DNA of 37,272 bases, from NCBI GenBank assembly GCA_030615565.1, contig JAUWZC010000001.1:1-37272 (forward strand), in the 5' to 3' direction. The notes beneath the pieces are model-generated. The model saw only the letters and a list, made by a program, of their open reading frames with translations, ran no database searches and was not told the DNA's origin. The DNA comes from Desulfobacteraceae bacterium (GTDB lineage: Bacteria; Desulfobacterota; DSM-4660; Desulfatiglandales; B25-G16). Both the position numbers and the translations under genes were made by a program. Each line of letters begins with the position of its first letter. Positions within the stretch are counted from its first letter, which is position 1. Below are positions 8,281 to 28,964 of this stretch, in pieces.

Positions 8281-8356
8281 GCGGGAATAGCTCAGTTGGT
8301 AGAGCATCACGTTGCCAACGTGACGGTCGCCGGTTCAAGCCCGGTTTCCCGCTCCA
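8281..8356 (+). tRNA. tRNA-Gly (anticodon GCC), CCA encoded
   Basis: The acceptor GCGGGAA pairs with TTCCCGC. The D-loop is AGCTCAGTTGGTAGAGC. The anticodon stem is TCACG/CGTGA with loop TTGCCAA. The T-loop is GGTTCAAGCCC. Confidence 0.92.
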
Positions 8357-8362
8357 AAAAAG

Positions 8363-8438
8363 GGCGGCATAGCCAAGTGGCTAAGGCAGCGGTCTGCAAA
8401 ACCGTTTTACACCGGTTCGAATCCGGTTGCCGCCTCCA
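8363..8438 (+). tRNA. tRNA-Cys (anticodon GCA), CCA encoded
   Basis: The acceptor GGCGGCA pairs with TGCCGCC. The anticodon loop is CTGCAAA and the T-loop is GGTTCGAATCC. It lies 6 nt after tRNA-Gly. Confidence 0.9.
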
Positions 8439-14977: not shown

Positions 14978-15334
14978 GTGGGAAAAGTACCCAAAATAAT
15001 TATAGTAATAGTAATAAGCCTTTTTCTTGTAGCCTTCTTTTTAGGTATATACATAACAATTGATGAAAAAATACCCAACAATGCAGTAGTTGTTGTAACA
15101 TTGGAAGATAAACTCTGTCATTCTATTCACTTTGATTATATTTGCGTTGCTCGCAAAACAGCCAAGACAATGGTCTGTTCTGAGGCAAAGGAGAAGGGTT
15201 TCAAATTAAACTCCCATTGTCAAAATCTTGGCTATTTTAGGGGTAACAGACTTTTTCTTTACCAATATATCCTCTCAAAGTTTGGGATACAATATAACAG
15301 CCGCTGGGATATGAACGGCAACTGGCTATGGTGA
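14978..15334 (+). CDS. Hypothetical single-pass membrane protein with 4 Cys in the extracytoplasmic part
   Basis: 118-aa ORF with a GTG start, an N-terminal TM helix IIIVIVISLFLVAFFLGIYI and no recognisable family. The RBS is weak and a 330-nt AT-rich spacer precedes it. Confidence 0.4.
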   Translation: MGKVPKIIIVIVISLFLVAFFLGIYITIDEKIPNNAVVVVTLEDKLCHSIHFDYICVARKTAKTMVCSEAKEKGFKLNSHCQNLGYFRGNRLFLYQYILSKFGIQYNSRWDMNGNWLW

Positions 15335-15494: not shown

Positions 15495-16262
15495 ATGCAA
15501 TTTGCATTCTTTGGAACATCCGATATAGGCCGTCATCGTAAATATAACGAAGATAGTTATCTTTGTAATCCAAAAGAAAAATTATTTCTGATTGCAGACG
15601 GAATAGGTGGGCAAGCCGCTGGTGAAATAGCCAGCAAGCTTGCGATTAGAAACATAGAAGAATTTGTTGTTCGATCACATTCAGAAGATATAACCTGGCC
15701 TATACCTTACAGACAGGAGTTTACGTTAGATCAAAACAGTCTCCTTGCTGGAACCACTCTGGCCAACCGCAAGGTACGCGAGCTTGCAAATCAGAATCCT
15801 TCAATGAAAGGGATGGGGACAACCCTTGTTGGGGTCATTATTAAAGGAAATCTACTAGCTATTTTAAATATAGGAGATAGTCGATTATATAGGATTAGGG
15901 GTGGTGAGATAGAGCAAATCACCCAGGACCACACTGTGGCGGGAGAACAGGAAAAGCTGGGACTCCTGACTAAAGAAGAGGCCTCTAATCATCCCCAGAA
16001 ACATATTCTTACGAGTGCCCTTGGGATTGAAGTTATGGAAAATCTTAGAATAGACCTTTCCCTTGTTGATATACTTAAAAAAGATCTATACCTTATGTGT
16101 TCCGATGGATTGAATGATATGCTTAGTGATAAAGAAATACTGGCAATAATTAACTCTGATGAAAACAGGTCCCTTGAAAAGATTAGCCTTTCATTGATTC
16201 AACAGGCCAATCTTGCTGGGGGGCGAGACAATATAACTATTATTCTGCTATCTTTTTATTAA
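15495..16262 (+). CDS. PP2C-family Ser/Thr protein phosphatase
   Basis: 255-aa ORF with NEDSYL, ADGIGGQAAGEIAS, GMGTTLVG, GDSRLYR, CSDGLNDML and GGRDNITIILL, the canonical PPM motifs. Confidence 0.88.
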   Translation: MQFAFFGTSDIGRHRKYNEDSYLCNPKEKLFLIADGIGGQAAGEIASKLAIRNIEEFVVRSHSEDITWPIPYRQEFTLDQNSLLAGTTLANRKVRELANQNPSMKGMGTTLVGVIIKGNLLAILNIGDSRLYRIRGGEIEQITQDHTVAGEQEKLGLLTKEEASNHPQKHILTSALGIEVMENLRIDLSLVDILKKDLYLMCSDGLNDMLSDKEILAIINSDENRSLEKISLSLIQQANLAGGRDNITIILLSFY

Positions 16263-16281
16263 AAATATTTCAAAAGATGAT

Positions 16282-17934
16282 ATGCCAAGCTTAGATATCA
16301 CAACCTATGGTGGCCGAAGGTATAGCCTTCAAATCAAAAAAGAAAAAATTACCATAGGCAGAAGTCCCGACAACAATCTTATCCTTTCTGAAAAAAGCAT
16401 CTCCCGTCACCATGCTGAGATAAAAAAAATGAAAGACGGCTACCTTCTAGCCGACCTCGGAAGTTATAATGGTACAAAGGTCAATGAAAAGTCGATTCAG
16501 GGCGTCCTCCTAAAACACAACGATAAAATAAAAATCGGCCTAACAAGCCTGATCTTCCTGGCCAGAAAAAAGGATGAATTATCCCTCGAGGACCCCCTTG
16601 TCCTAACCATAGATAGTGATTATGAAAAAGAGCATAAAGAGGTACTAAAAAGCCTCTCAGATAGTGGTGCTATTGACTCTAAGGAGCTGTTAGTTTCTTT
16701 AGAAGCTATGAAAACCCCAAAAGAAGCTGCTATTTCTGCCCTTCCAGAAGAGACTCAGGCTGAATTAGAGAGAAGGAACAAGGTGCTCTTTGTGCTTTAC
16801 GAAATCAGTCGCCAGTTAAACACCATCCATGATTTTAGAGAACTCCTGAAAATAATAATGGATCTTATCTTTATGGTAATTAGTGCTGATTACGGTTTTT
16901 TGGTTCTTATTGGAGATGGAACAGAAGATCAACTCATTCCGGTGGTAGTCAAATATAGAAGCAACCAAGAAAAAAATAAGAGGAAATTAAAGGCTAGCCA
17001 AACCTTAATTCATAAAGTAATACATGGTAAAGTTGCTATATTAACATCAAACGCTATGGCCGATTCTCGATTTGATGGTGCCAAAAGCCTCTTTATCCAG
17101 AAAATCAGATCAGCTATTTGTGTGCCACTTTGGAGAAAAGACAAAATTATTGGTGTTATTCAACTCGACAGTATAAGATTTGATAACCAATTTAACCAGG
17201 ATGATCTCGAGCTACTTAAGGCCATTGGAAGTCAGATGGCCATGATAATTGAACAGGCCAGTCTTAATGAGCAGATAAGGGAAGAAGAGATAATGAGAAG
17301 CCGTCTAGAGAGATTTCACTCTCCCCAGGTAATTGAAATGATCTTAAAAGGAAGTCAAGAGACCAAAGATAACGTGATGGAGCCAAAGGATCTAACAGCC
17401 ACTATACTCTTTACAGATATTATTGACTTTACCCAGCTCGCGGAACGAATTTCTCCTCGAGAAACAAATATAGTTCTGAATCAATATTTTTCAACAATGA
17501 CAGATATTGTCTTCAGCTACGATGGCACCCTTGATAAGTATATAGGCGATGGACTGATGGCTGTTTTTGGAGCCCCAATGGAAAGAGAAGACGATGCGGA
17601 AAGGGCAATTCTGGCTGCCAAAGAAATGAAAAGCCAACTGGCAGTAATGATGACCGAAAAAGGAGGCCATAGAAAAAAATTTGATATACGGATAGGAATA
17701 AATACCGGGAGGGTGGTTGCCGGAAATATTGGTTCTCCCAAGCGGATGGACTACACCGTTATAGGAGACCCAGTCAATACTGCCTCAAGATTAGAATCAA
17801 TTGCCAAGCCGAATCAGATTCTTATAGGAGAGGAAACATACAGGGCTGTGAAAGATAAATTCAAAATAAGAAAAATTGGTCCAAAAAAGGTTAAAGGAAA
17901 AAGAGCGGATATTATGGTTTATGAAATTATTTAG
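16282..17934 (+). CDS. FHA - GAF - class III adenylate/guanylate cyclase
   Basis: 550-aa ORF. The FHA domain has ITIGRSPDNNLILSEKSISRHHAEI..GSYNGTKVN. A GAF-like central region follows. The cyclase domain has ATILFTDIIDFT, GDGLMAVFGAP, IGINTGRVVAGNIGS and YTVIGDPVNTASRLES. Confidence 0.88.
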   Translation: MPSLDITTYGGRRYSLQIKKEKITIGRSPDNNLILSEKSISRHHAEIKKMKDGYLLADLGSYNGTKVNEKSIQGVLLKHNDKIKIGLTSLIFLARKKDELSLEDPLVLTIDSDYEKEHKEVLKSLSDSGAIDSKELLVSLEAMKTPKEAAISALPEETQAELERRNKVLFVLYEISRQLNTIHDFRELLKIIMDLIFMVISADYGFLVLIGDGTEDQLIPVVVKYRSNQEKNKRKLKASQTLIHKVIHGKVAILTSNAMADSRFDGAKSLFIQKIRSAICVPLWRKDKIIGVIQLDSIRFDNQFNQDDLELLKAIGSQMAMIIEQASLNEQIREEEIMRSRLERFHSPQVIEMILKGSQETKDNVMEPKDLTATILFTDIIDFTQLAERISPRETNIVLNQYFSTMTDIVFSYDGTLDKYIGDGLMAVFGAPMEREDDAERAILAAKEMKSQLAVMMTEKGGHRKKFDIRIGINTGRVVAGNIGSPKRMDYTVIGDPVNTASRLESIAKPNQILIGEETYRAVKDKFKIRKIGPKKVKGKRADIMVYEII

Positions 17935-17962
17935 AGTCAAAAAATTTCCTTTTACTACCTGA

Positions 17963-18046
17963 TTATTCCTTCTTAAGATCCTCTATGTCCTTTTTAAGGC
18001 CTTTGACCTCTTCCTTTAGCTCACTTGTATCAAGTTCTTCATCAAA
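17963..18046 (-). repeat. Shared C-terminal tail module, copy 1 (inverted relative to 28878-28964)
   Basis: It encodes FDEELDTSELKEEVKGLKKDIEDLKKE*. By hand alignment, 64 of 81 aligned nt and 19 of 27 residues are identical to the tail of the 28698-28964 ORF. Confidence 0.8.
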
Positions 18047-19558
18047 TTTCTCTATATCTTTTTTTCGAATATAGGTAGCAATGTTTTTTCTTAATAAGGC
18101 ATATTCATCATTCATGCTTTTTAGCTTTTCCTTGGCATCTATTGCCTCTCGCTCTAATTCCTTCATTCTCAATGCAAGATCGGTTATATCTATATTGACA
18201 ACTACACATTCCTTGGATTTCCCATCGATGCTCTGAACAGGATAGACCCTTGCCAGAACATGCACGGGTTCCCCCTGAGCCGAATAATATTTCCATTCTT
18301 CTCCATTAAATGATTCCCCTTTAAAGACCCTTATTATTGTTTCTCTAAATGGTCGTCTTGTAGATTTTGAAACAAAGGTCAAAGGGTTGTTTCCAATCAT
18401 CTTAGAGGAAGGGTAACCAAAATTTTCTTCACACGCCTTATTCCAGAAGCTAATCTTACCTTTAGAGTCTATCTTATAAATAGCATTCGATGGCGATCCA
18501 ACTGCCTGGCCACGATTATCATATACGCTATAAGTTTCCCCTTGCACATTAGTAACATCCTGCATTATTTGTATAGCCCCTTTAATTGATCCATTGATGT
18601 CAAGAATCGGGGCAACTGCTACAATTGCCTGAATACCCTCTTTTATGTCAGGAAGAGGAACACCCACCTCAAAGAACCCGCTATCTGTCTTTGATACGAT
18701 TGAGCCGGAAAATTTATCTATTATAGTATCTGGGTCCTCTATCATAATATCAGCTAGACTCCGTTGCCTATCAACGCATAAAGAGGCAGGAACCTTCTTT
18801 CCAATTATTTCCTCTGTAGGTACACCTGTCATCTGCTGGCATGCACGATTCCACTGAATCACCCTATGTTCTACATCCACTACAAAGGTAGGGAGAGGAG
18901 ATTTCTCGACAAGAGTGTCAATGTAGTTCTTTGACTCTACAAGGGTCCTGGATCTGACCTGTTCTCTGTCGAGGACATCAGTCTTTTCCTTTTCATACAT
19001 GAAGGCAATTAAAAGAATAACCAAAAGGCCCGATAAATATGCGCCCAGGGAATAAATAGGTGAAATATCAGGGGGTATGAGATTTGGAAACTTGTAACCG
19101 CTCCTAAATAGATAAACTGCAACACCCGTTTCAAAAAATATTAAAGTCCCCCAGATAGTTCCCCATAGATATCCTGTAATGAAAACAGCCATAAGGATAA
19201 GGACAGCATTCCATATCCAGGATAAAAGGATTAAACCTCCTTCGCTCATTGCCCCAGTATTCCACCTAGTAATCAAAAAAGTAGCCCATAGGACAAAAAA
19301 GGCATAATTTCCAGCTACAATAAGATTTTTGGTCAGCCTTAGAAGAATCAGGGCCGAGATCGCTAATATACCGGCACCAATGGTAGTATAAAAGAGAAGA
19401 TCTGCCTTGATGTTAAAATAAAACAGGCCAAGGAAAAGGGAAAGAAGAATAAGGATACATAGAAATGTATTGAGGGATTTAAATTTCGTTATTCTTTCTA
19501 AATCCGGAGATTTTATTCCACACGTAATAAAATTGTTAAATAGAGATTTGAGGCTCAT
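17963..19558 (-). CDS. Polytopic membrane protein with two PAS domains and a C-terminal coiled coil, no recognisable output domain
   Basis: 531-aa ORF. About 6-7 hydrophobic helices occupy residues 25-190. Two PAS-like repeats follow (..VIQWNRACQQMTGVPTEEIIGK.. and ..ISFWNKACEENFGYPSSKMIGN..). A heptad-rich tail ends in DTSELKEEVKGLKKDIEDLKKE. There are no HisKA/HATPase, GGDEF, EAL or MCP motifs. Confidence 0.75.
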   Translation of the reverse strand: MSLKSLFNNFITCGIKSPDLERITKFKSLNTFLCILILLSLFLGLFYFNIKADLLFYTTIGAGILAISALILLRLTKNLIVAGNYAFFVLWATFLITRWNTGAMSEGGLILLSWIWNAVLILMAVFITGYLWGTIWGTLIFFETGVAVYLFRSGYKFPNLIPPDISPIYSLGAYLSGLLVILLIAFMYEKEKTDVLDREQVRSRTLVESKNYIDTLVEKSPLPTFVVDVEHRVIQWNRACQQMTGVPTEEIIGKKVPASLCVDRQRSLADIMIEDPDTIIDKFSGSIVSKTDSGFFEVGVPLPDIKEGIQAIVAVAPILDINGSIKGAIQIMQDVTNVQGETYSVYDNRGQAVGSPSNAIYKIDSKGKISFWNKACEENFGYPSSKMIGNNPLTFVSKSTRRPFRETIIRVFKGESFNGEEWKYYSAQGEPVHVLARVYPVQSIDGKSKECVVVNIDITDLALRMKELEREAIDAKEKLKSMNDEYALLRKNIATYIRKKDIEKFDEELDTSELKEEVKGLKKDIEDLKKE

Positions 19559-19701
19559 AATTGCTACTAAATAGGCTTGCTGATGAAAAGAGTAAAAGGG
19601 TTAATAATGAGATTCTCAAGAGACATTCCTTCATCATTAGGAACATAAACAGAAATATAACAATTTAACTTACAAATAATAAGGTAAAAACGAAAATAGT
19701 A

Positions 19702-20145
19702 TTAAAATATCGTAATCTTCCCTTCACGGTCGACAATTCCATTTATTTCCTTAACCCCGTCTTTAAAAAGGTTGAAAGAGGCCGAGATGGTAACTTGACA
19801 AAAGCCATCAGCCGTTGCTGGAAAGGTTTGAATTTGAAAGTTGAGATTGTGACCGACGGGAATAGGGACATTGAGTGCATCTTTGACATCTTGTATCTCT
19901 TGCTTGGTAGGAGGATCATTCTTAAATATATCTATACTTGTACCATCTTCTGGAAAAAATTTTTCATTCTCCAGAAAATACATGATCTCGGCATCAAGAA
20001 TCCTTTTTAGCATAAGAGCAGCCTCAGATCCATAGGCCCTCTGTTGATATATATTTAAGATTGGCATTGCTGTGGCACCTAAAATTCCCAAAATGGCAAC
20101 CACAACCATTAACTCAATAAGCGTAAAACCAGCATGTCTTCTCAT
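19702..20145 (-). CDS. Type IV pilin / pseudopilin-like protein with class III (prepilin) signal
   Basis: 147-aa ORF. MRRHAG|FTLIELMVVVAILGILGATAMP has Gly at -1, Phe at +1 and Glu at +5, followed by a hydrophobic alpha1-N helix. An AGGAG RBS lies inside the 3' end of the upstream gene. Confidence 0.8.
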   Translation of the reverse strand: MRRHAGFTLIELMVVVAILGILGATAMPILNIYQQRAYGSEAALMLKRILDAEIMYFLENEKFFPEDGTSIDIFKNDPPTKQEIQDVKDALNVPIPVGHNLNFQIQTFPATADGFCQVTISASFNLFKDGVKEINGIVDREGKITIF

Positions 20146-20150
20146 TTCAT

Positions 20151-20747
20151 TTAGGCTCCTCCGCTCGATGGCCGGGTATACTCAATACCTTTTGGTGATA
20201 GAATAACATTCATCTCCCCTGCCTTAGGATTTGCCACAGACAAGCGGTAGCCTGCCTCGGGATCCCTCTGATAAGATAATTTCTCCAAATGAAAAAGTTC
20301 ATCCTTTCTTAATGATAGATATTTAGGAACAAGATTGGATAGTTTTTCAGGGTATTTATCTCCTTCATAATGTGCATAACGCTTGATAGCCCCATCAACC
20401 ATAAACAATAGTACCCTTCCCTTTTTAGCAAAATCAATCTTTCTGGGAGGTGCAGGCTGACCACCAAAGATAATTACTCCCCACATCACCAGGATCAACA
20501 TAGATGAAATAATGACAAAATACTGAAAGGGACCCTTTTTTTTCTTTTTTTTATCTTCCTTCTCTGTAAGCTTTCCCTGCTTGTCTTTTATAGATGTACC
20601 GACTTCAGAGACAGAGTGAAGCATGGCACACTGAAAACAGTAATATTCGCCAGATCTCGACTCTTCACCGCATTCCTTGCACAGTGGCGCATTACAACTT
20701 GCACAAAAAAATTCTGCTTCCCTCTTAGGGTGATATTTACACTTCAT
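20151..20747 (-). CDS. Zinc-finger (B-box-like) / single TM / GspG-like periplasmic domain protein
   Basis: 198-aa ORF. The N-terminus CKYHPKREAEFFCASCNAPLCKEC..CFQC is followed by a KKKKKK linker and a TM helix FQYFVIISSMLILVMWGVIIFGG. The C-terminal AIKRYAHYEGDKYPEKLSNLVPKYLS resembles the T2SS major-pseudopilin globular domain. Confidence 0.6.
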   Translation of the reverse strand: MKCKYHPKREAEFFCASCNAPLCKECGEESRSGEYYCFQCAMLHSVSEVGTSIKDKQGKLTEKEDKKKKKKGPFQYFVIISSMLILVMWGVIIFGGQPAPPRKIDFAKKGRVLLFMVDGAIKRYAHYEGDKYPEKLSNLVPKYLSLRKDELFHLEKLSYQRDPEAGYRLSVANPKAGEMNVILSPKGIEYTRPSSGGA

Positions 20748-20863
20748 GAAAATTCCTCTTCTAAATAAGGCATATTTTTTATAGCTATTATTTTAAGGTA
20801 AAGGTAAGAAAAGATAAAGGAATAGTCAAGAAATAAATCTTTTTAGGTATGTTGAGCAAATTT

Positions 20864-22789
20864 TTAACTTTCAGGCTTCAAGCTATTTCCACAATAAGGA
20901 CAGGCAACCCAATCTGGCTGTACTATCCGCTTGCAAGAAGTACAGGTAGGAATTATAGGTTTTTTGCAATAGGGGCAGTCCTTGAAATCTAAGCTAACGG
21001 TTTTTCCACAATGAGGGCAAATGGTGGTCAATTCCTCCTTTTCGTGTACCGCTTTCAGTACCTCTTCTATGGTTGTTATTCCCATTTCTATCTTTTTCAT
21101 TCCACTAATCCCGAGGGTGGTCATCCCCATTGCCATGGCTGCTTCCCTCAAAGTATCGGCCGTTGCAGAGGACTGAATGAGTTCTCTTATTTTAGGACCA
21201 ATAATCATCATCTCTTCAATAGCCGTTCGCCCTCTGAAACCAGTATTATTGCAATTAGGGCACCCTGCCCCCCTGTAGAATTTAAAGGGAAGATCATTTT
21301 GATCCAGATTTAGTCTGGCCAGGGAATCTTGAGCAGGCAAATACTCCTCCCTACAATCCTCACATATGGTTCTTACCAGCCGTTGTGCAACAATTCCAAC
21401 TACAGAAGAAGCAATAAGATATGGCGGGATACCTATATCTATGAGACGAGTAACTGCCGCAGGAGCATCGTTTGTATGGAGGGTTGAAAGAACCAGATGT
21501 CCAGTCATGGAGGCCTGAACAGCTATCTCAGCCGTCTCTTCATCTCTTATCTCACCTATCATAATCACATTGGGATCCTGTCTTAAAATCGAGCGCAGAA
21601 TAAAGGGAAATGAAAGGCCAACCTTCTCGTTTATCTGTACCTGGTTGACACCAGACAACTCATATTCTACAGGATCCTCAACAGAAATGATATTTACCTC
21701 TTCCGACTTTATCTCCCGCATACATGCATAAAGGGTTGAGGTTTTTCCACTTCCTGTAGGGCCTGTAATCAAAACCATGCCCTGGGGACGATGGATAAAA
21801 TTCGTTATTATTTTCAGATTCTTCTGGCTTAATCCAAGTTGATCCACTGAGAGAAATGCTTCTTCTTTGTTCAAGATTCTTATAACAGCCTTTTCACCAT
21901 AATAAGTAGGAAGTGTCGATACTCTCAGATCTACAGATACATTTTTTGCCTTTACCTTTATCCTCCCATCCTGGGGAAGCCTCCTCTCTGCTATATTCAA
22001 ACCCGCCAATACCTTTATGCGCGAGATAATAATAGGTTGAGTCCATTTCGGGAGCTTGATAGAATCCTTTAGTACACCATCAATGCGATTTCTAACTCTT
22101 ACATGATTTTCCTGTGCCTCAATATGAACATCACTTGATCCACTCTTAATAGCATTCCTGATTATAAGATCAACCATTTTTATAAAAGGTGAATCCTTGA
22201 AAGATTCAAAATCCGCTTCTTCATCCACTTTCTTTTCTTCTTCGGGAAGAAACTCCATGAGGCCAGTATCTTCCACAAATTCATCAGCAACGTCCCTAAT
22301 TGTTCTTTCCGGATGGTAGTGTCTTTGAAGCTTGTCTATTATCTGGCTTCGTGTAGAAATAGCCGGCTGGATATTGTAACCAGTTATAAACTGGAGATCT
22401 TTCATTATATTCAGATCAAGAGGATCAGCCATGGCAACATCAAGTATATTATTTTTCATAGATAGAGGAACACATACAAACTTCTGACAAACCTCCTCAG
22501 GTAGACAGTCAATAACTTCATTTTTAATAGAATAGTCTATAAGATCAATGAAGGGAATCTTAAGTTGCATAGCCAGAGCAAAGGCCATTTCCTCTTCTGA
22601 AATGATCTTCATATCAATTAGGGCCTCGCCTAATCTTTTCCCAGTTTCCTTCTGAACCTCTAAAGCATCCTTTAGTTTATCAATAGTTAAAAGACCTGAT
22701 TCTATTAATAATTCTCCTAATTTACGTCGGGAGACAAAATTATCCTTATGTGTTTTATTCTTGGTTTGAATTGAGGCAGTATCTGCCAT
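20864..22789 (-). CDS. GspE/PilB-family type IV filament assembly ATPase with MshEN-type N-domain and C-terminal double zinc ribbon
   Basis: 641-aa ORF with Walker A GPTGSGKTS, Walker B VIMIGEIRD, His box LSTLHTND and the tetracysteine CEDC..CPNC. The N-terminus reads KLGELLIESGLLTIDKLKDALEVQ-KETGK-RLGEALIDMKIISEEEMAFALAMQ. An extra tail reads CPHC..CPYC..CTSC..CPYC. Confidence 0.92.
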   Translation of the reverse strand: MADTASIQTKNKTHKDNFVSRRKLGELLIESGLLTIDKLKDALEVQKETGKRLGEALIDMKIISEEEMAFALAMQLKIPFIDLIDYSIKNEVIDCLPEEVCQKFVCVPLSMKNNILDVAMADPLDLNIMKDLQFITGYNIQPAISTRSQIIDKLQRHYHPERTIRDVADEFVEDTGLMEFLPEEEKKVDEEADFESFKDSPFIKMVDLIIRNAIKSGSSDVHIEAQENHVRVRNRIDGVLKDSIKLPKWTQPIIISRIKVLAGLNIAERRLPQDGRIKVKAKNVSVDLRVSTLPTYYGEKAVIRILNKEEAFLSVDQLGLSQKNLKIITNFIHRPQGMVLITGPTGSGKTSTLYACMREIKSEEVNIISVEDPVEYELSGVNQVQINEKVGLSFPFILRSILRQDPNVIMIGEIRDEETAEIAVQASMTGHLVLSTLHTNDAPAAVTRLIDIGIPPYLIASSVVGIVAQRLVRTICEDCREEYLPAQDSLARLNLDQNDLPFKFYRGAGCPNCNNTGFRGRTAIEEMMIIGPKIRELIQSSATADTLREAAMAMGMTTLGISGMKKIEMGITTIEEVLKAVHEKEELTTICPHCGKTVSLDFKDCPYCKKPIIPTCTSCKRIVQPDWVACPYCGNSLKPES

Positions 22790-22909
22790 AGATCGTAGCC
22801 TTATTTGTATTTTAACCTTTAAAAAGCAATCTATCCAATTTTGTATATCATCGTTTAAACATTATTTCAACTCAATAAAAAATAATATAATCAATACCAA
22901 GGCTTTTCT

Positions 22910-22938
22910 TTGACATATAGGTATTAATTTGATATAAA
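22910..22938 (+). promoter_or_regulatory. Candidate sigma70-type promoter for the CHASE2-kinase operon
   Basis: TTGACA (22910-22915), a 17-nt spacer, then TATAAA (22933-22938), in the 267-nt AT-rich divergent spacer about 120 nt upstream of the ATG at 23057. Confidence 0.45.
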
Positions 22939-23056
22939 ATTCGATTAATTTTAAGTTGCTTAAATTATTTTTAAAAAATATATTAAGTTAGATAAATAGA
23001 ATTATGGTTACAGATTATCAACTAAAATATCCAAAATAATAATAACATTTAATTTC

Positions 23057-25573
23057 ATGAACGAAAGCGACAAAAAAACAAATTTGCTTATAGGCTCACT
23101 CATAGTGGTCATTTGTATTTACCTGTCTTTTATGAGCTTTCCCTTTTTTGAGTCACTTGAAAAGGTAATTTACGAGATCGAAATGCGGCTCGATACACCC
23201 CGTAACCCTGGTGAAAGCAAAGTAGCTATTGTAAATATTGATGATAAAAGTATCAATAAACTTGGCAAATGGCCCTGGCCAAGGCATATCATAGCTGAGA
23301 TGATCAAAATCTTAAAAAGTAATGGGGCAAAGCTTATTGGCATAGAGATGGTCTTTAGCGAAAAAGAACAAAATCTAGGCATCGAAGAGATAAAAAAACT
23401 TTACTCTAAAATCCTGAATCGAGAAAAAGTTTACACCACAGGAGAAAAACACACATGGATACTTGCTGAGTTGGAGGAGATTGAAAAACGCCTGGATAAC
23501 GATAAAGTCCTATCACAAACAGTGAAAAATACTGGAAATATAATCCTTCCAGTTATTGGCGAATTTGGAAAATATAGAACTGAATTAATAATTGCACCTG
23601 AATCATTCCTGAATATCAGCACATTGAAAAAAGATAGCATTAATATTGAAGACCAAACACCTGTCAAAGAATTAACTACTCCGTTTAATGAGCTATCAAA
23701 AAGCAGTCATGCTCTAGGACACACAAACCTATCCCCTAATAAACTAAGGGTGGGCCAAGTCCATATACCTTTTATCAATTATAGAGGACATATAATACCC
23801 TCTATGCCTTTACGTCTTGCCCTTGACTACCTAAATAAGCATCCTGAACAGGTAATAATTAAAGGGTCTGGAATTAAACTCGGAGAAGAAATTATTCCAA
23901 CCAGCAAGGGGGAAATGCTCATCAAATTTAAAGGTGGAAGACGATCCTTTCCATATTATTCATTTATAGATATCTTAAATGTTAAAAAGGTCCCAGCTGT
24001 ATTTGATGGCAAAATTGTCCTCATTGGCTTTACAGCCAAAGGAAGTGCTTCGGTTAACACACCGGTAGACCCTTATATGCCACAGGTAGAATTTATGGCC
24101 AACGTAATCGATGATTTTTTACATGGACGTTTTCTTAAACGCTCAAATGTAATGCTATATCTGGAGGTCTTTATCTTAGTGCTACTTGGACTGGCATCCT
24201 CATTCTTCCAATCCCGTTTCAGTTATTTAAACCGAACCGCATTCACAGCCGGGTTGATCTTTCTTGTCTTTTTAACCAGTGCCACCTTTTTTATATCATT
24301 TGATATATGGTTTAAAAGCATTTATATCCTTCTCTCTCTGACAACTATCTATGTTGTAATTATGGGAAAAGACTTTCTATATATTCACAAGACCGGTTTA
24401 TCAAAGGAGGCTATAGAAACTAACCGAATGCTTGGTATTAGCCTTCAAAGCCAGGGGTTGCTTGATCTGGCCTTTGAAAAATTCAGAAAATGTCCTCTCG
24501 ACGATGAACTGAGGGATGTTATCTACAATCTTGGGCTTGATTACGAACGAAAGAGAATGATTAATAAGGCTATTTCTATCTATGAATACATTAACAAGAA
24601 AGACAAAGGTTTTAGGGACTTAACTGAACGTATACCAAAATTAAAAAAGGTGATCAGTTCTCTACCATTAGGTGCCTATCAAGGAAAAAAGGAAGATAAA
24701 ATAGTTGTTTCAGATGACCTAGAAGTTAAGCCCACTGTCGGAAGATACGAAATACTAATGGAGTTGGGTCGGGGGGCAATGGGTACTGTTTACAAAGGGA
24801 GAGATCCTAAAATCAATCGCCTCTTGGCAATTAAGACAATCCGTTTCTCAGATGAATTTGAAGATGATCAGCTAAAGGAGATAAAAGAGCGCTTCTTTAC
24901 AGAGGCCGAGTTAGCAGGAAAACTCTCACACCCCGGAATCGTTGCCATACACGATATAGGAGAAGACTATGATCTTACTTATATGGCCATGGAATTCTTA
25001 GACGGGGAGGACCTAGAGAAATACTGTAAGAAAGGATCGCTCCTTCCAATTAGAAAACTACTAGATATTATAGCTGAAACAGCAGATGCCTTAGAATATG
25101 CACACAACAATGGTGTAATTCACAGGGATATAAAACCAGCAAATATAATGCTATTAAAAAATGGCAGAGTAAAGGTAACTGATTTTGGGATAGCAAAGTC
25201 AATGTCTGCCTCAAAAACCAGAAGTGGAATAATACTCGGTACACCTAACTATATGGCACCAGAACAGATTATGGGTCGCCAGATAGACGCTCGATCGGAT
25301 ATATTCTCTCTGGGTGTTGTGTTCTTTCAGCTCCTAACAGGAGATTTGCCATTCCGTGGGGACAACCTGAACAGCCTTTTTTACAAAGTTACCCAAGTTA
25401 AGCATCCCTCACCTAGTAAAATAAATCCAAAGGTTATAAAACCGTGTGAGCAGATACTTGATAAAGCATTAGCTAAAAACCCGGATCATAGATTTCAGAA
25501 GGCTAGTGATCTTGCTAAGTATTTAAGAATTTTGGCTAATAAAATTGATACCCTGAGGGTGAAAAAAAAATAA
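23057..25573 (+). CDS. CHASE2 sensor - TM - TPR-like - Hanks-type Ser/Thr protein kinase
   Basis: 838-aa ORF. After an N-terminal TM helix comes the CHASE2 hallmark VAIVNIDDKSINKLGKWPWPRH, then three TM helices around residues 365-440. The kinase motifs are GRGAMGTVYKG, AIK, HRDIKPANIML, DFGIAK and GTPNYMAPE. Confidence 0.88.
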   Translation: MNESDKKTNLLIGSLIVVICIYLSFMSFPFFESLEKVIYEIEMRLDTPRNPGESKVAIVNIDDKSINKLGKWPWPRHIIAEMIKILKSNGAKLIGIEMVFSEKEQNLGIEEIKKLYSKILNREKVYTTGEKHTWILAELEEIEKRLDNDKVLSQTVKNTGNIILPVIGEFGKYRTELIIAPESFLNISTLKKDSINIEDQTPVKELTTPFNELSKSSHALGHTNLSPNKLRVGQVHIPFINYRGHIIPSMPLRLALDYLNKHPEQVIIKGSGIKLGEEIIPTSKGEMLIKFKGGRRSFPYYSFIDILNVKKVPAVFDGKIVLIGFTAKGSASVNTPVDPYMPQVEFMANVIDDFLHGRFLKRSNVMLYLEVFILVLLGLASSFFQSRFSYLNRTAFTAGLIFLVFLTSATFFISFDIWFKSIYILLSLTTIYVVIMGKDFLYIHKTGLSKEAIETNRMLGISLQSQGLLDLAFEKFRKCPLDDELRDVIYNLGLDYERKRMINKAISIYEYINKKDKGFRDLTERIPKLKKVISSLPLGAYQGKKEDKIVVSDDLEVKPTVGRYEILMELGRGAMGTVYKGRDPKINRLLAIKTIRFSDEFEDDQLKEIKERFFTEAELAGKLSHPGIVAIHDIGEDYDLTYMAMEFLDGEDLEKYCKKGSLLPIRKLLDIIAETADALEYAHNNGVIHRDIKPANIMLLKNGRVKVTDFGIAKSMSASKTRSGIILGTPNYMAPEQIMGRQIDARSDIFSLGVVFFQLLTGDLPFRGDNLNSLFYKVTQVKHPSPSKINPKVIKPCEQILDKALAKNPDHRFQKASDLAKYLRILANKIDTLRVKKK

Positions 25574-25608
25574 AGAAAATAATAGTTGTGAAGAATTAAG
25601 GAGAAAAA

Positions 25609-26436
25609 TTGAAAATCACAGCTGCTGGACTTTCTGATGTTGGCCTTAAGAGGGAAAGTAACGAGGATTACCTTACGATAGACAATTCTACTGGATTATA
25701 TATAGTGGCTGATGGTATGGGAGGGCATCAGGCTGGAGAGGTTGCCAGCAGGGTTGCCGTACAGATAATCCAGAAAAACGTTAACAATTGGATAACTAAG
25801 AACAGTCCTATGGTTGACTTATTCGACTTTCCGGACATGACCCTGAGCCAAAGAGGTAATTATATATCAAGTAGCATAAAATTAGCTAACAGGGTTATTT
25901 ATGAAATGTCTCAAGAATATACAGAATACAAGGGCATGGGGACAACGATTGTAATCTTGGCAATAATGCCCTCTACTATAATTGCAGCTAACGTGGGCGA
26001 TAGCAGGATCTATCTTATAAGAGGAGATACAATGGAACCTCTTTCTAAGGAACATAGCATGGTAGCCGAACAGTTAGAGATGGGTCTGATATCTGAGGAA
26101 GAAGCAAAAATTTCTCCTTTAAGACATATACTTACGAGGAATCTGGGTTCAACAGGTATAGTTGATGCAGATGTTTTCGAAATTGAGCACATAAATAATG
26201 ACCGTTTTTTACTCTGCACTGATGGGCTGACAGATCTTGTATCAGACGATGAGATACTAAGCATTATCAAAAATGGAAATGACCCTGATTATATCTGTCA
26301 GCAACTCGTTTCTGAAGCTAATAAGAGGGGTGGTTATGATAATATCACTGTCTCTTTGATATGTTTAAATGAACAAAATGATGAAAAGCAGGGAATCATA
26401 AGAAGATTTGGAACCTTTTTAAAAAATAAAAAATGA
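25609..26436 (+). CDS. PP2C-family Ser/Thr protein phosphatase (second copy)
   Basis: 275-aa ORF with a TTG start 5 nt after AAGGAG. Motifs are NEDYL, ADGMGGHQAGEVAS, GMGTTIV, GDSRIYLIR, CTDGLTDLV and GGYDNITVSLI. Confidence 0.88.
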   Translation: MKITAAGLSDVGLKRESNEDYLTIDNSTGLYIVADGMGGHQAGEVASRVAVQIIQKNVNNWITKNSPMVDLFDFPDMTLSQRGNYISSSIKLANRVIYEMSQEYTEYKGMGTTIVILAIMPSTIIAANVGDSRIYLIRGDTMEPLSKEHSMVAEQLEMGLISEEEAKISPLRHILTRNLGSTGIVDADVFEIEHINNDRFLLCTDGLTDLVSDDEILSIIKNGNDPDYICQQLVSEANKRGGYDNITVSLICLNEQNDEKQGIIRRFGTFLKNKK

Positions 26437-26477
26437 GCTTATGTTTTTCTTATTAACCACAAAAAGGGGCATATGTT

Positions 26478-27200
26478 ATGGCACGGGTTATATTAGTATT
26501 TAATAAAAAAGTGATTAAAGAGTATCCTTTTGCCAAAGATAGCATGACCATCGGGCGGGATGAAGTAAATGATATTGTAATCGATAATCTGGCGGTATCC
26601 GGTCACCATGCTAGGATAGACAAAACCGGAGATACCTATATCCTTACCGACTTACAAAGTACAAACGGAACCTTTGTTAATGATAAGAAAATTACCTCTC
26701 ATAAATTGCTGCATAAGGATAAAGTAATTATTGGCAAACATCTCCTTTTCTTTGCTATGTCAAAGCAGGAACAAGCCAAAGCTAAAGATGGAGAGCTTGA
26801 TAAGACCATGATCCTTGACACAGCCAGGCAAAAGGAGCTATTAGAGAAACAGGCTGAAAAAAAGGCCATGGCTGTACCCGCTCAAAAAGGTAAACTTGGT
26901 ATCATAACCTTCATCGACGGTTCCGGTGAAGGCGAAATTCAACTGACGAAAAAACTAACCAAGATAGGCAAAGCTGAAACGTCGGAAATAAGGCTCGGTG
27001 GTGTGTTCATGCCTCCTACAGCAGCTACTATCAGTCGCAGACCAAATGGTTATGCTATTTCATCCACTGGTGGGAGAACAAAGGTAAAAGTAAATGATCA
27101 GGTGATAAAAGAAAGCCATTACCTGAAGGATTTTGATACAATTGAAATAGGATCATACAAATTCCAATTCTATAGCCAGGATAGTAAAGATGCAAAATAA
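26478..27200 (+). CDS. Double FHA-domain protein (canonical N-terminal FHA plus degenerate C-terminal FHA-like domain)
   Basis: 240-aa ORF. The N-terminal domain has MTIGRDEVNDIVIDNLAVSGHHARI..LQSTNGTFVND. The C-terminal part reads TKIGKAETSEIRL..ATISRRPNGYAISS..KVKVNDQVI. Confidence 0.8.
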   Translation: MARVILVFNKKVIKEYPFAKDSMTIGRDEVNDIVIDNLAVSGHHARIDKTGDTYILTDLQSTNGTFVNDKKITSHKLLHKDKVIIGKHLLFFAMSKQEQAKAKDGELDKTMILDTARQKELLEKQAEKKAMAVPAQKGKLGIITFIDGSGEGEIQLTKKLTKIGKAETSEIRLGGVFMPPTAATISRRPNGYAISSTGGRTKVKVNDQVIKESHYLKDFDTIEIGSYKFQFYSQDSKDAK

Positions 27201-28164
27201 AATAAGTAGAAAAAATAGAGTAAAAATAAATATACTTTATTTAATTATTGCTATCCTTCTTTCTTCCCCTTTTTATTTAGAGGCATCTGAAAGGCAATCT
27301 ATCAAGGTTAAAGCAGATGACTCGATAAGTTTCCTTAGCTTCAAAATTTATGGCAGATTCCACCCTGAAATGCTTAAACAATTCTCAAAAATTAATCCCC
27401 ATGTTAAAGATTGGAATAATCTTACTGTAGGAACAGAAATAAAATTTCTAACCGAAAAAGAAATGAATAGCATTATTCCAGAGCAAAAAAAAGAAGTGAT
27501 AATTATAACCTTTTTGAAACATCCAGTAAAAATTAAAAAGGGTGCCAAAGGTCCTCATAAAAGAGCTCTATTAAATATGATCCTTGATTCAAAAGATTGT
27601 ATAGAGGTAAGAAGTGGTGGCAGCGTAGAATTAATGATGAGCTATGGAAGGGTCATCAGGCTAAATGAGGGCTCAACCTTAAAAATTGGTACCTTAAAGA
27701 GGGATGAGAAAAAAAAATCAGTTGTAGGAAAATTCAAACTCTTTCTTGGAAGGCTCTGGGGAAAGGTATTAAAGGCTCGATCTTATAGAAAAAAAGAGAT
27801 GTACGTGTCCACGCCAACACTCGTAGCTGGTGTCAGAGGGACAGCATATGACCTAAAATTAAAGCGTGACCAGTCCACAATCATCAAGGTTTTTGAAGGA
27901 GAGGTTGAAATATATAATCCTTTACAAAAAATGCCCGAATCCGGAGTTATTAAGGATTTTAAAAAACCACATAGGGTTAAAGGCCCCCACAGAATCACCG
28001 AAAAAGAATGGAATGAGATCCTTCTCAGGCAATACCAACAAGTAATTGTTACAAAAGAGGGCATTAGCGAACCTATTATATTCGACTACGAAAAGGAAAG
28101 GCAAACTGAATGGATAAAATGGAATGAAGAGAGGGATCTAAGATTAAGTGAAAGGGAGACCTAA
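27190..28164 (+). CDS. Exported LysM-like / FecR-domain protein
   Basis: 324-aa ORF overlapping the FHA gene stop by 11 nt. It has a signal or anchor helix ILYLIIAILLSSPFYL and a LysM-like segment IKVKADDSISFLSFKIYG..NNLTVGTEIKF. The FecR-like beta region reads IRLNEGSTLKI..VAGVRGTAYDL..VFEGEVEIYN. Confidence 0.65.
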   Translation: MQNKISRKNRVKINILYLIIAILLSSPFYLEASERQSIKVKADDSISFLSFKIYGRFHPEMLKQFSKINPHVKDWNNLTVGTEIKFLTEKEMNSIIPEQKKEVIIITFLKHPVKIKKGAKGPHKRALLNMILDSKDCIEVRSGGSVELMMSYGRVIRLNEGSTLKIGTLKRDEKKKSVVGKFKLFLGRLWGKVLKARSYRKKEMYVSTPTLVAGVRGTAYDLKLKRDQSTIIKVFEGEVEIYNPLQKMPESGVIKDFKKPHRVKGPHRITEKEWNEILLRQYQQVIVTKEGISEPIIFDYEKERQTEWIKWNEERDLRLSERET

Positions 28165-28176
28165 TAAAGGCTAACT

Positions 28177-28422
28177 TTACTTCCCTGGCACACCTAAAGA
28201 TTTAAGTCTTTTATCTGTCATTTCCTTTAATCTTGTTTCTATCTGGTGTTCTGAAAAGGTCTTCTGACAGTGTGTGCATTGGTAGATTTCTTCTACGACC
28301 TCATCATATATAAGATTATCTGAAAAATTTACTCTTCGGAACTGGGTAGAAAAATTATAGATCTGAATAAAATTTTTATTCTTACATTTATCACACAAAA
28401 AATAATCCTTGATAGTATTCAT
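28177..28422 (-). CDS. Small 4-Cys zinc-ribbon protein, unknown function
   Basis: The 81-aa form starts at MNTIKDY, with a GGGGG stretch a few nt upstream as a possible RBS. It has two CxxC pairs (CDKC and CTHC) about 45 residues apart. The track's TTG start at 28434 is the alternative. Confidence 0.5.
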   Translation of the reverse strand: MNTIKDYFLCDKCKNKNFIQIYNFSTQFRRVNFSDNLIYDEVVEEIYQCTHCQKTFSEHQIETRLKEMTDKRLKSLGVPGK

Positions 28423-28697
28423 TAGTGCCCCCAAAAAAGCATCTCTCTCTTGCGATCAGGTAAATTCTCTTACCCAATTTAGTCTACTTTGTCAAAGAAA
28501 ATATGGTTAATGGTCTTCTCTAATTGACAATTATAGAAAAAATTTATCTTTATTTGTGTTTATTGAATTAACTTTAGCTCACTTTGAAATTTAGGGATTA
28601 AAAATATAATTATCTTCTTGAATGATGATTTTTCTTGTGTTAAAAGGAACAAAATTAACATCCTTTTAATAATAAGACAAAGGTTAAGGAGGGAAAA

Positions 28698-28964
28698 ATG
28701 GCGGCTTTAATTGGTGGCTTGGTATCTTTGGTTTTGGGGGTTATAGGAATTATTATCTTTTGGGGATATTTTGTTAAGGCCTTAGCAGCTGGAATACCTG
28801 CTCTACTTATCTTGGGTGGTGCCTTAGCCACATATCTTGGCATTGAAGAATGGAAAGATAAAAAAAGTGCCCAGAATTTCACCGAAGAACCTGATACAAG
28901 CAAGCTAAAGGAAGAGGTAGAAAGTCTGAAAAAAGAGGTAGAGGATCTTAAAAAAGAAGAATAA
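28698..28964 (+). CDS. Small two-TM hairpin membrane protein with charged coiled-coil tail
   Basis: 88-aa ORF with a GGAGGG RBS (28689-28694). It has two Gly/Ala-rich helices (LIGGLVSLVLGVIGIIIFWGYF and AAGIPALLILGGALATYLGI) and the tail EEPDTSKLKEEVESLKKEVEDLKKEE. Confidence 0.6.
   Translation: MAALIGGLVSLVLGVIGIIIFWGYFVKALAAGIPALLILGGALATYLGIEEWKDKKSAQNFTEEPDTSKLKEEVESLKKEVEDLKKEE
28878..28964 (+). repeat. Shared C-terminal tail module, copy 2 (inverted relative to 17963-18046)
   Basis: It encodes FTEEPDTSKLKEEVESLKKEVEDLKKEE*. It contains the 15-nt identical run GCTAAAGGAAGAGGT and a second run, GAAGAAC-(C/T)-TGATACAAG, identical to copy 1 except at that one position. Confidence 0.8.

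Follow-up and report, generated by a model that had tools for sequence, protein, structure and literature searches.

Type IV filaments serve in adhesion, motility, DNA uptake, secretion and extracellular electron transfer, and the post-translational controls known for them in bacteria are mainly cyclic di-GMP (c-di-GMP) and partner proteins. Bitopic adaptors of the GspL/PilN type link the ATPase to the pseudopilin, and PilS senses pilin within the membrane. In Pseudomonas, the PpkA-PppA-Fha1 threonine-phosphorylation pathway is proposed to gate assembly of another envelope machine, the H1 type VI secretion system (T6SS), post-translationally, and in cyanobacteria cyclic AMP (cAMP) made by a cyclase affects type IV pilus motility (the adenylate cyclase Cya1 would contain an FHA domain, which our literature search did not confirm). 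ATPases with an MshEN domain bind c-di-GMP (PMC5013675), in a group that includes PilB, MshE and PilF (PMC5013675, PMC6957770, PMC11731258), and PilB can be a c-di-GMP-responsive switch (PMC6957770, PMC5544727). In Sulfolobus, the Arn kinase/phosphatase/FHA network (the FHA protein ArnA, the vWA protein ArnB, the kinases ArnC and ArnD, and the phosphatase PP2A) controls the archaellum, a type IV filament machine, and modulates the levels and expression of archaellum components (ArlB, ArlX) (PMC6509490, PMC5300886, PMC7472852); the genes of the Arn regulators always lie outside the filament locus (PMC4858521). The Ser/Thr kinases SpkA and SpkB of Synechocystis affect type IV pilus-dependent motility, and the CHASE2-kinase architecture is known in cyanobacteria (PMC2176072). 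Here we analyse a signalling-rich gene cluster around a PilB-like ATPase and a prepilin in a Desulfobacteraceae bacterium (GCA_030615565.1, contig JAUWZC010000001.1, positions 1-37,272 of the forward strand; this whole stretch of 37,272 nucleotides is the window below), first described as an island at 15495-28964. The cluster is a real, conserved and undescribed type IV filament-related variant into which a receptor Ser/Thr kinase is built, together with a new family of pilin partners, and its function we infer from its parts. The arrangement points to a new means by which a pilus-like filament could be turned on and off.

The core and near-core genes, with one regulatory element, are the following:

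14978-15334, plus strand: o118, 118 residues, N-terminal transmembrane (TM) helix and small alpha/beta domain, core; lies left of the start first described
16282-17934, plus strand: predicted FHA-GAF-class III adenylate cyclase, near-core; Pfam FHA 7e-20, GAF, Guanylate_cyc 8.5e-35
17963-19558, minus strand: multi-TM (5-6 helices) PAS-PAS coiled-coil protein, core; Pfam PAS twice
19702-20145, minus strand: prepilin, core; Pfam N_methyl 8.4e-10, NCBIfam GFxxxE domain
20151-20747, minus strand: B-box zinc finger/one TM/C-domain protein, the anchored prepilin partner, core; Pfam zf-B_box 1.3e-6
20864-22789, minus strand: PilB/GspE-family ATPase, core; Pfam T2SSE 3e-132, MshEN 2.1e-23, DZR 4.3e-8
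22910-22938, plus strand: sigma-70-like promoter element TTGACA-N17-TATAAA, facing the kinase gene in the 267-bp divergent intergenic region
23057-25573, plus strand: CHASE2-TM-Hanks-type Ser/Thr kinase, core; Pfam CHASE2 4.8e-47, Pkinase 4.6e-58

The ATPase operon runs from the ATPase through the B-box protein and the prepilin to the PAS protein as its last gene; the kinase gene is divergent from it, and the cyclase gene is convergent with the PAS gene. Compared with the systems above, the ATPase belongs to the same family as the c-di-GMP-controlled MshE of Vibrio cholerae, PilF of Thermus and PilB of Chloracidobacterium and Myxococcus, with which it shares the N-terminal tandem 24-residue MshEN motif and its 5-residue spacer, whereas it scores below the PilB and GspE cut-offs, carries an extra zinc-ribbon tail and has no PilC, PilD or PilMNOPQ alongside. 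With the Arn network, the locus shares a Hanks-type kinase, a Ser/Thr phosphatase and an FHA reader around a machine of the type IV filament superfamily, but Arn is archaeal and acts on component levels and expression, while here there is no vWA partner and the FHA domain is fused to an adenylate cyclase. The first-pass annotation of this DNA knew of no described system of this kind; our literature search likewise found neither a described system of this composition nor a B-box/prepilin pairing, although Sulfolobus does provide a precedent for kinase/phosphatase/FHA control of a type IV filament. The analogy it drew with PpkA-PppA-Fha1 holds for the logic, in that a transmembrane Hanks kinase, a PP2C and an FHA protein are encoded beside an envelope machine, but not otherwise, since the machine there is a T6SS, and here the PP2C and the stand-alone FHA protein are not conserved and the sensor is CHASE2. 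Cyanobacterial motility genes are scattered, unlike the conserved cluster with its dedicated ATPase and pilin here. Like the GspL/PilN adaptors, the B-box protein has a single TM helix between a cytoplasmic and a periplasmic domain, and the PAS protein, like the N-terminus of PilS, has about six TM helices followed by PAS but, unlike PilS, no histidine kinase module; no sequence or fold similarity to GspL, PilN or PilS was detected for either protein.

The conservation of the core was measured in two samples. The first, anchored on the B-box gene with one genome per GTDB species, comprised 69 loci at 54-88% identity, and all 69 carriers are uncultured metagenome-assembled genomes (MAGs) labelled Desulfatiglandales, Desulfobacteraceae or 'Deltaproteobacteria'. 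Because this sample was anchored on the B-box gene, a second was anchored on the kinase, using the CHASE2 half as query in metagenome contigs (80 loci at 51-98% identity, not all independent). In the first sample, the island genes were scored by tblastn and clustering of open reading frames (ORFs); in both, only loci whose contig reached far enough were counted. In the B-box-anchored loci, the prepilin was found in 59/59, the ATPase in 55/60, the PAS protein in 48/52, the kinase in 42/46 and the FHA-GAF-cyclase in 36/45, with o118 (36/37) as tightly linked to the cluster as the prepilin. The kinase-anchored loci gave the same picture from the other side, with the ATPase in 63/65, the B-box protein in 39/43, the prepilin in 34/38, the PAS protein in 26/29, the cyclase in 21/24 and o118 in 18/21. 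The conserved unit is thus the kinase, then the divergent series ATPase, B-box protein, prepilin and PAS protein, then the cyclase (not always present) and o118. As the arrangement is conserved in two reciprocal samplings, the density of signalling genes is not due to chance.

Synteny between the signalling genes and the ATPase triad had been set beforehand as the refuting test for a link between them. It is conserved in at least 60 species-level genomes with differing flanks, and it holds for the kinase, and usually for the FHA-cyclase, with the ATPase and pilin genes; nor does the kinase travel with unrelated neighbours instead, the ATPase being adjacent to it in those 63 of 65 kinase-anchored loci. 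A conserved kinase/PP2C/FHA triad, on the other hand, did not emerge: in the B-box-anchored sample the first phosphatase (PP2Ca) was present on its side of the cluster in 16/44, the second (PP2Cb) in 11/43, the FHA-FHA protein in 11/40 and the FecR protein in 5/38, and in the kinase-anchored sample PP2Cb was present in 34/60, the FHA-FHA protein in 31/54 and the FecR protein in 11/42. The extent first given for the island therefore needs revision at both ends. The right-hand third (25609-28964) is clade-specific and not core, and o118 belongs to the cluster although it lies outside the original start.

Five close relatives (L001-L005) keep the whole island, but they keep the SecA/ArgJ and ETF-QO flanks too, and are uninformative for linkage because the housekeeping flanks are also conserved. 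Flanks differ between groups: besides SecA/ArgJ with NDK/ETF-QO there are, in the divergent genomes, other housekeeping flanks, namely GroES/GroEL with an epimerase, FolD with DUF62, and Mpl with PCMT, showing that the core persists through several context changes. Complete genomes with the cluster are CP070704.1, CP070673.1 and CP070657.1. There are exceptions to the full arrangement. In L024 (CP070673.1, a complete MAG chromosome) the ATPase has no kinase upstream; the B-box/prepilin pair stands with the PAS protein but without the ATPase in L031, L057 and L059; the kinase lacks the ATPase in L104 and L127; and the kinase and ATPase lack the B-box/prepilin pair in L131 and L140. L024 retains the ATPase, B-box, pilin, PAS, cyclase, PP2C and o118 genes and the SecA/ArgJ flank.

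The ATPase scores 609.8 bits against the NCBIfam PilB model (cut-off 675.65) and 582.8 against GspE (cut-off 630.25), below both equivalog cut-offs. Its closest relatives in the PDB are PilF of Thermus (7.7e-158) and PilB of Geobacter (about 1e-146), the PilF/PilB matches ranging from 1e-158 to 1e-143. These alignments end near residue 584, so the double zinc ribbon of about 57 residues at the C-terminus (about residues 585-641) is an addition. Of 58 orthologues, 56 retain Walker A, all 58 the tetra-Cys site and 56 the four CxxC of the tail, so that the protein has the make-up of a PilB/GspE-family hexameric assembly ATPase with Walker A/B and the tetra-Cys zinc site. The N-terminus passes the NCBIfam c-di-GMP_motif model (62.3 bits, cut-off 38), and, by the published definition of the MshEN motif (PMC5013675) in relaxed form, tandem 24-residue motifs with a 5-residue spacer are present in 51/58 orthologues, which identifies a receptor motif. 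An exact look-up of the ATPase sequence of the window found no record.

The only prepilin of the locus has the leader MRRHAG|FTLIE, a class III signal peptide (G|FTLIE), and the motif of this class (G|F..xE) is kept in 55/56 orthologues. It is the fastest-evolving core protein (39-67% identity, compared with 66-91% for the ATPase), which fits an exposed subunit. Its upstream neighbour consists, from N to C, of a cytoplasmic B-box head, a Lys-rich linker, one TM helix and a periplasmic helix followed by a four-strand domain; hydropathy places the head in the cytoplasm, with a KKKKKK stretch before the single TM helix. This protein has no class III leader, the B-box, linker and TM helix standing in its place. 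The B-box gene ends 5 bp upstream of the prepilin gene in the window, and elsewhere the two genes overlap by 4 bp or are separated by 2-26 bp; the prepilin is predicted to be translationally coupled to the B-box protein.

The pair reaches beyond the cluster. A sequence search gave 542 homologues of the B-box protein, and a profile search of 1.84 billion cluster representatives (50% identity) gave 311 relatives, dozens of which are full-length at far below 50% identity; the shorter homologues from the representative search are fragments, none with a prepilin leader. At six distant loci from other lineages (e.g. Syntrophobacterales), the B-box gene abuts a prepilin-type gene, often with a 4-bp overlap, and there is no ATPase or kinase within 10 kb. 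The partner prepilins are homologous to that of the window to about residue 70, past the generic N-terminal helix. Two genomes with the full cluster carry the pair a second time as an orphan copy (L015 with L016, L068 with L022), and in L103 (5908-7560) the pair is tandemly duplicated. The anchored protein and the prepilin form the oldest, smaller unit, which recurs in other lineages without ATPase or kinase. Within 2-8 kb of a distant pair, small signalling proteins of a single domain are encoded, two PilZ proteins in L077 (5605-8032), and a cyclic nucleotide (cNMP)-binding protein and an FHA protein in L160 (2364-4780); these neighbours may be coincidence or may reflect the same signalling theme.

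One relative, P0324, has the same C-domain and TM helix, with the B-box replaced by FHA and cNMP_binding domains (Pfam). It is 46% identical to a B-box family member (E=1e-23), it aligns with the B-box family of the window at 97.6% probability in hhalign (E=2.7e-12), and a context look-up placed a prepilin 26 bp downstream of its gene. In every case, including the six distant loci and this head-swap relative, a prepilin-type gene adjoins that of the anchored protein. By the domain-fusion argument, the head swap ties the pilin module independently to phospho-threonine and cyclic-nucleotide input, and the signals that are encoded as separate genes in the cluster of the window would be read directly by the pilin partner in the P0324 type. 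The anchored B-box protein represents a new, widespread family with an exchangeable cytoplasmic head.

On the other side of the divergent intergenic region, the kinase is predicted to be a catalytically competent Hanks-type enzyme: all 43 orthologues retain VAIK, HRD and DFG, and 41 of the 43 retain the Gly loop. Hydropathy gives TM helices at 10-28, 365-383 and 395-413, with CHASE2 periplasmic between the first and the latter two. Across 104 distinct intergenic regions, a TTGACA-N16-18-TAnnnW element lies on the kinase-facing strand in 91 and on the opposite strand in 2, at a median of 120 nt from the kinase start, matching the distance of about 120 nt in the window. CRP-like sites (at most 2 mismatches) were found in 14/104 kinase-ATPase intergenic regions and sigma-54 sites in 0 and 1 of 104, so that neither cAMP-CRP nor sigma-54 control gains support. 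Across the island, scans for generic promoters and terminators remained at chance level (59 against 48+/-7 in shuffles, and 11 against 12+/-3) and are silent on operon structure.

An FHA reader accompanies the kinase in most loci but not in all, as the FHA-GAF-cyclase (about 80% of genomes; 36/45 and 21/24 in the two samples) and, in 11/40 and 31/54, as the FHA-FHA protein. The FHA domain of the cyclase is canonical and keeps GR..SxxH in 36/36 orthologues. The cyclase of the window contains FTDIIDFT, KYIGDG and DYTVIGDPVNTASR; of 36 orthologues, 35 retain K.IGD, 31 the metal motif and 27 D.T..GD.VN.A.R. With its metal Asp pair, Lys/Asp substrate residues and Asn/Arg, it is a predicted class III adenylate cyclase, the Lys/Asp pair being of the type seen in adenylate cyclases. 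No cognate PP2C is conserved with the kinase: two are present in the window, elsewhere they occur in only part of the clade.

Two further core proteins are membrane proteins. The PAS protein has TM segments at 32-186 (5-6 helices), two PAS domains, a coiled coil and no enzymatic output domain, and its TM region matches no Pfam family at E<=10. The o118 family has 166 members, all in this clade and 63-92% identical, with no Pfam or NCBIfam match, including Pfam at E<=10. Its AlphaFold2 (AF2) model (mean predicted local distance difference test score, pLDDT, 86) has a TM helix and a small alpha/beta domain, for which the best Foldseek match in the PDB is the zinc-binding N-terminal domain of Ada (N-Ada), not significant at E=0.72. 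Next to o118, seven divergent loci (L049, L051, L052, L055, L067, L020 and L035) encode, downstream, a protein of about 270 residues that combines a zinc ribbon (CPKCG...CPKC) at its N-terminus with a long acidic tail.

We give an even chance to the reading that the locus is a conserved, lineage-specific signal-gated pilin module of uncultured Desulfatiglandales-like bacteria, with its function presumed from the gene content. Once a peptidase from outside the locus had processed the single prepilin, the PilB-type ATPase would polymerise it into a type IV filament or pseudopilus, on an assembly platform probably borrowed from the canonical type IV machinery of the cell. The anchored B-box protein would bind or present the pilin in the membrane via its TM helix and ectodomain, and its zinc-finger head would couple the pilin to the cytoplasmic side, either to the ATPase or to regulators. 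Three inputs may converge on this module: c-di-GMP at the N-terminus of the ATPase; a periplasmic cue, picked up by CHASE2 and relayed as phospho-threonine on putative substrates; and cAMP from the cyclase, whose FHA domain would dock on the phosphorylated kinase or a substrate, recruiting or activating the cyclase. Where present, the PP2Cs would reverse the phosphorylation and reset the switch. The first-pass annotation had proposed a phospho-threonine/FHA switch, with cNMP and c-di-GMP input, that gates assembly of a reduced type IV filament. Of this, the linkage of kinase, cyclase and c-di-GMP motif to the module has held up and the PP2C, FHA-FHA and FecR genes have proved accessory, while the gating and the reduced filament are what we infer.

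Were this so, the controls of bacterial filaments would come to include eukaryote-like phospho-signalling, through a receptor Ser/Thr kinase and an FHA-adenylate cyclase. A new and widespread family of pilin partners also comes out of the analysis, with a cytoplasmic head that can give way to other signal-reading domains. The carriers are abundant, uncultured relatives of sediment sulfate reducers, for which surface structures matter in syntrophy and in attachment to minerals or hydrocarbons; they are experimentally inaccessible, and the cluster offers testable parts in c-di-GMP binding, kinase substrates and pilin/partner complexes.

Several findings weigh against a signal-gated pilin module. 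All full clusters come from one order-level clade, so inheritance could explain part of the conservation, and all 69 genome matches are MAGs with no cultured carrier. An FHA reader is missing in about 20% of loci when the FHA proteins of the window are used as queries, and both PP2Cs are missing from most. In the MshEN domain, unlike in MshE, PilF and PilB, key position 1 of motif 1 is often Lys instead of Arg (35/51 orthologues) and motif 2 has mostly lost its conserved Gly (lost in 44/51, retained in 7/51); because of these two deviations, c-di-GMP binding by the predicted MshEN domain of the ATPase is likely but not assured. No platform protein, prepilin peptidase, secretin, alignment proteins or minor pilins were found in the window or within +/-10 kb in relatives, and no PilMNOP families in the window or the conserved neighbours. 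The platform and the prepilin peptidase may be supplied from elsewhere in the genome, in which case filament assembly relies on genes outside the view of this analysis. Finally, the zinc-finger protein had been called GspG-like, a label that gained no significant support: Foldseek of its model against the PDB gave no significant match (best E=0.5, PilX at rank 40 with E=2.2), its profile matched GspG (5wda) among PDB sequences only at E=1.1, hhalign of its C-domain with the neighbouring pilin family gave 5.9%, and Pfam found no T2SSG in the ectodomain at E<=10. In the AF2 model (pLDDT 72), a disordered Lys-rich linker joins the zinc-finger head to the TM helix, after which come a long helix and a four-stranded antiparallel sheet; the predicted ectodomain, a helix then an antiparallel sheet, would have pilin topology, and both weak GspG/pilin alignments share a register, with the TM helix on pilin alpha-1 and 'Y...G.YP' on the alpha-beta loop. 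We regard the pilin-likeness of the ectodomain as a lead, not a result.

The absence of platform genes could also be taken at face value, with the B-box protein, the 6TM-PAS protein and o118 replacing PilC/PilMNO in a self-contained machine. No T2SSF/PilC, peptidase A24 or secretin was found in the 37-kb window or within +/-10 kb of related loci, no platform protein (PilC/GspF, T2SSF) in the Pfam matches of L001-L006 +/-10 kb or the conserved ORF families of the 69 loci, and no platform gene in any of about 150 loci; three membrane proteins without a family keep company with the ATPase as closely as the prepilin does, and the double-zinc-ribbon tail, absent from PilB, GspE and PilF, could be a docking site for a non-canonical partner, for instance the zinc-finger head. 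On this account, which we judge improbable, the seven core genes and a shared peptidase would make a new minimal class of type IV filament, gated by transmembrane Ser/Thr phosphorylation with c-di-GMP and cAMP, and, no more probably, the anchored-partner family with its B-box or FHA and cNMP-binding head would be a general inside-out regulator of pilins. To our knowledge, every characterised type IV filament system needs a platform of the PilC/GspF/TadBC/FlaJ type; moreover, absence at the locus does not mean absence from the genome, and the occurrence of the pair without a dedicated ATPase in other lineages fits a plug-in to existing machinery better. Also unlikely, though slightly less so, is that the locus is a signalling device and builds no filament: the pilin and its partner would be a membrane or periplasmic sensor, the ATPase a c-di-GMP-responsive signalling protein, and the output cAMP and/or phospho-threonine on targets elsewhere. 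The cluster is indeed richer in sensors (CHASE2, two PAS, GAF, MshEN, FHA) than in structural genes, the PAS protein with about six TM helices and no enzymatic output recalls PilS, the anchored protein has a cytoplasmic signalling head that can be swapped, and PilB signals independently of pilus assembly in Myxococcus (PMC5544727). The ATPase, however, retains all its catalytic motifs (Walker A 56/58, tetra-Cys 58/58), the cleavable leader is kept in 55/56 prepilins that evolve as fast as exposed subunits would, and the core encodes no cNMP receptor or transcription factor.

A looser relation is conceivable as well, in which the kinase operon with PP2C, FHA and FecR genes and the FHA-cyclase are independent of the pilin/ATPase operon and lie beside it by inherited order. 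The single order-level clade, the housekeeping flanks conserved in close relatives and the exceptions L024, L031, L057, L059, L127 and L104 would all be expected from such neighbours; yet the flanks have turned over several times while the divergent kinase-ATPase pair persisted (42/46 and 63/65), the shared intergenic region has a conserved promoter, and the head-swap relative fuses FHA and cNMP-binding domains to the pilin partner, which makes mere adjacency very unlikely. We rejected an anti-phage defence island of the kinase type (PD-T4-6/Mad6-like) or with a Pycsar-like cyclase, and think it barely credible: the PADLOC models PD-T4-6, mad6 and PycC do match the kinase and the cyclase, but only in their generic catalytic domains, and neither a Pycsar effector nor any other defence partner is present. 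The ATPase gave two weak PADLOC matches limited to the P-loop (E of about 1e-4 to 1e-5), the B-box protein, prepilin, PAS protein, o118, FHA-FHA and FecR proteins gave none, and the locus has a stable chromosomal context between housekeeping genes and uniform composition.

The accessory genes of the island are the following:

15495-16262, plus strand: PP2C phosphatase a; Pfam PP2C 2.1e-13
25609-26436, plus strand: PP2C phosphatase b, clade-specific; Pfam PP2C 1.6e-18
26478-27200, plus strand: FHA-FHA protein; Pfam FHA 3e-26, two stretches
27190-28164, plus strand: FecR-domain protein, membrane-anchored or exported, rare; Pfam FecR 8.3e-11
28177-28434, minus strand: 85-residue protein with two CxxC pairs, zinc-ribbon-like; sub-threshold family matches only
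28698-28964, plus strand: 88-residue TM hairpin with coiled-coil tail; TM segment by hydropathy, weakly MamI-like

Nearly all of the domains listed at these and the core ORF boundaries by the first-pass annotation were recovered by Pfam and NCBIfam, including two PP2Cs, one Hanks kinase, the cyclase, the PAS sensors and the c-di-GMP motif. Its count of three to four FHA domains comes out at three, not four: in the FHA-FHA protein, a canonical first domain is followed by one, also marked weak in the precomputed domain matches, that is by eye degenerate, without the GR/SxxH/NG residues. The FecR domain was found as described, whereas the LysM domain placed in the same protein had no match in residues 1-136 at E<=10. 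The 85- and 88-residue ORFs occur only in close-clade loci. The 88-residue protein scores 37.7 bits against the NCBIfam model of the magnetosome protein MamI (cut-off 80; E=1.4e-9, residues 1-66), and, with no other mam genes in the window, it is not assigned to MamI. Its end (28890-28964) and the C-terminus of the PAS protein (17963-18040) share a near-identical peptide of about 24 residues, DTSxLKEEVxxLKKxxEDLKKE, which is always present on the 88-residue protein and on the PAS protein only in some close-clade genomes, the latter ending elsewhere in ...IRKK; this shared tail may be a docking or coiled-coil peptide. Zinc-ribbon proteins recur around the cluster, in the ATPase tail, the B-box protein and the 85-residue ORF.

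Rfam and tRNA scans gave no match inside the island. The G+C content of the 37-kb window is about 38-44%, with composition unbroken at the island, and all genes outside the island are housekeeping genes. One flank encodes DnaX, a LysA-type decarboxylase, DapB, an aminotransferase, HPPK, transaldolase, SLT, a CDP-alcohol transferase, an M23 peptidase, SecA, ArgJ and an epimerase; the other encodes NDK, ETF-QO, an FAD oxidase/CCG protein, an acyl-CoA ligase and a thiolase. Four tRNA genes lie on the plus strand of the window, Ser-CGA (35-130), Ser-GGA (362-455), Gly-GCC (8281-8356) and Cys-GCA (8363-8438). The listed TTG start of the M23 peptidase ORF (8427) overlaps the last of these, and its true start is probably further downstream.

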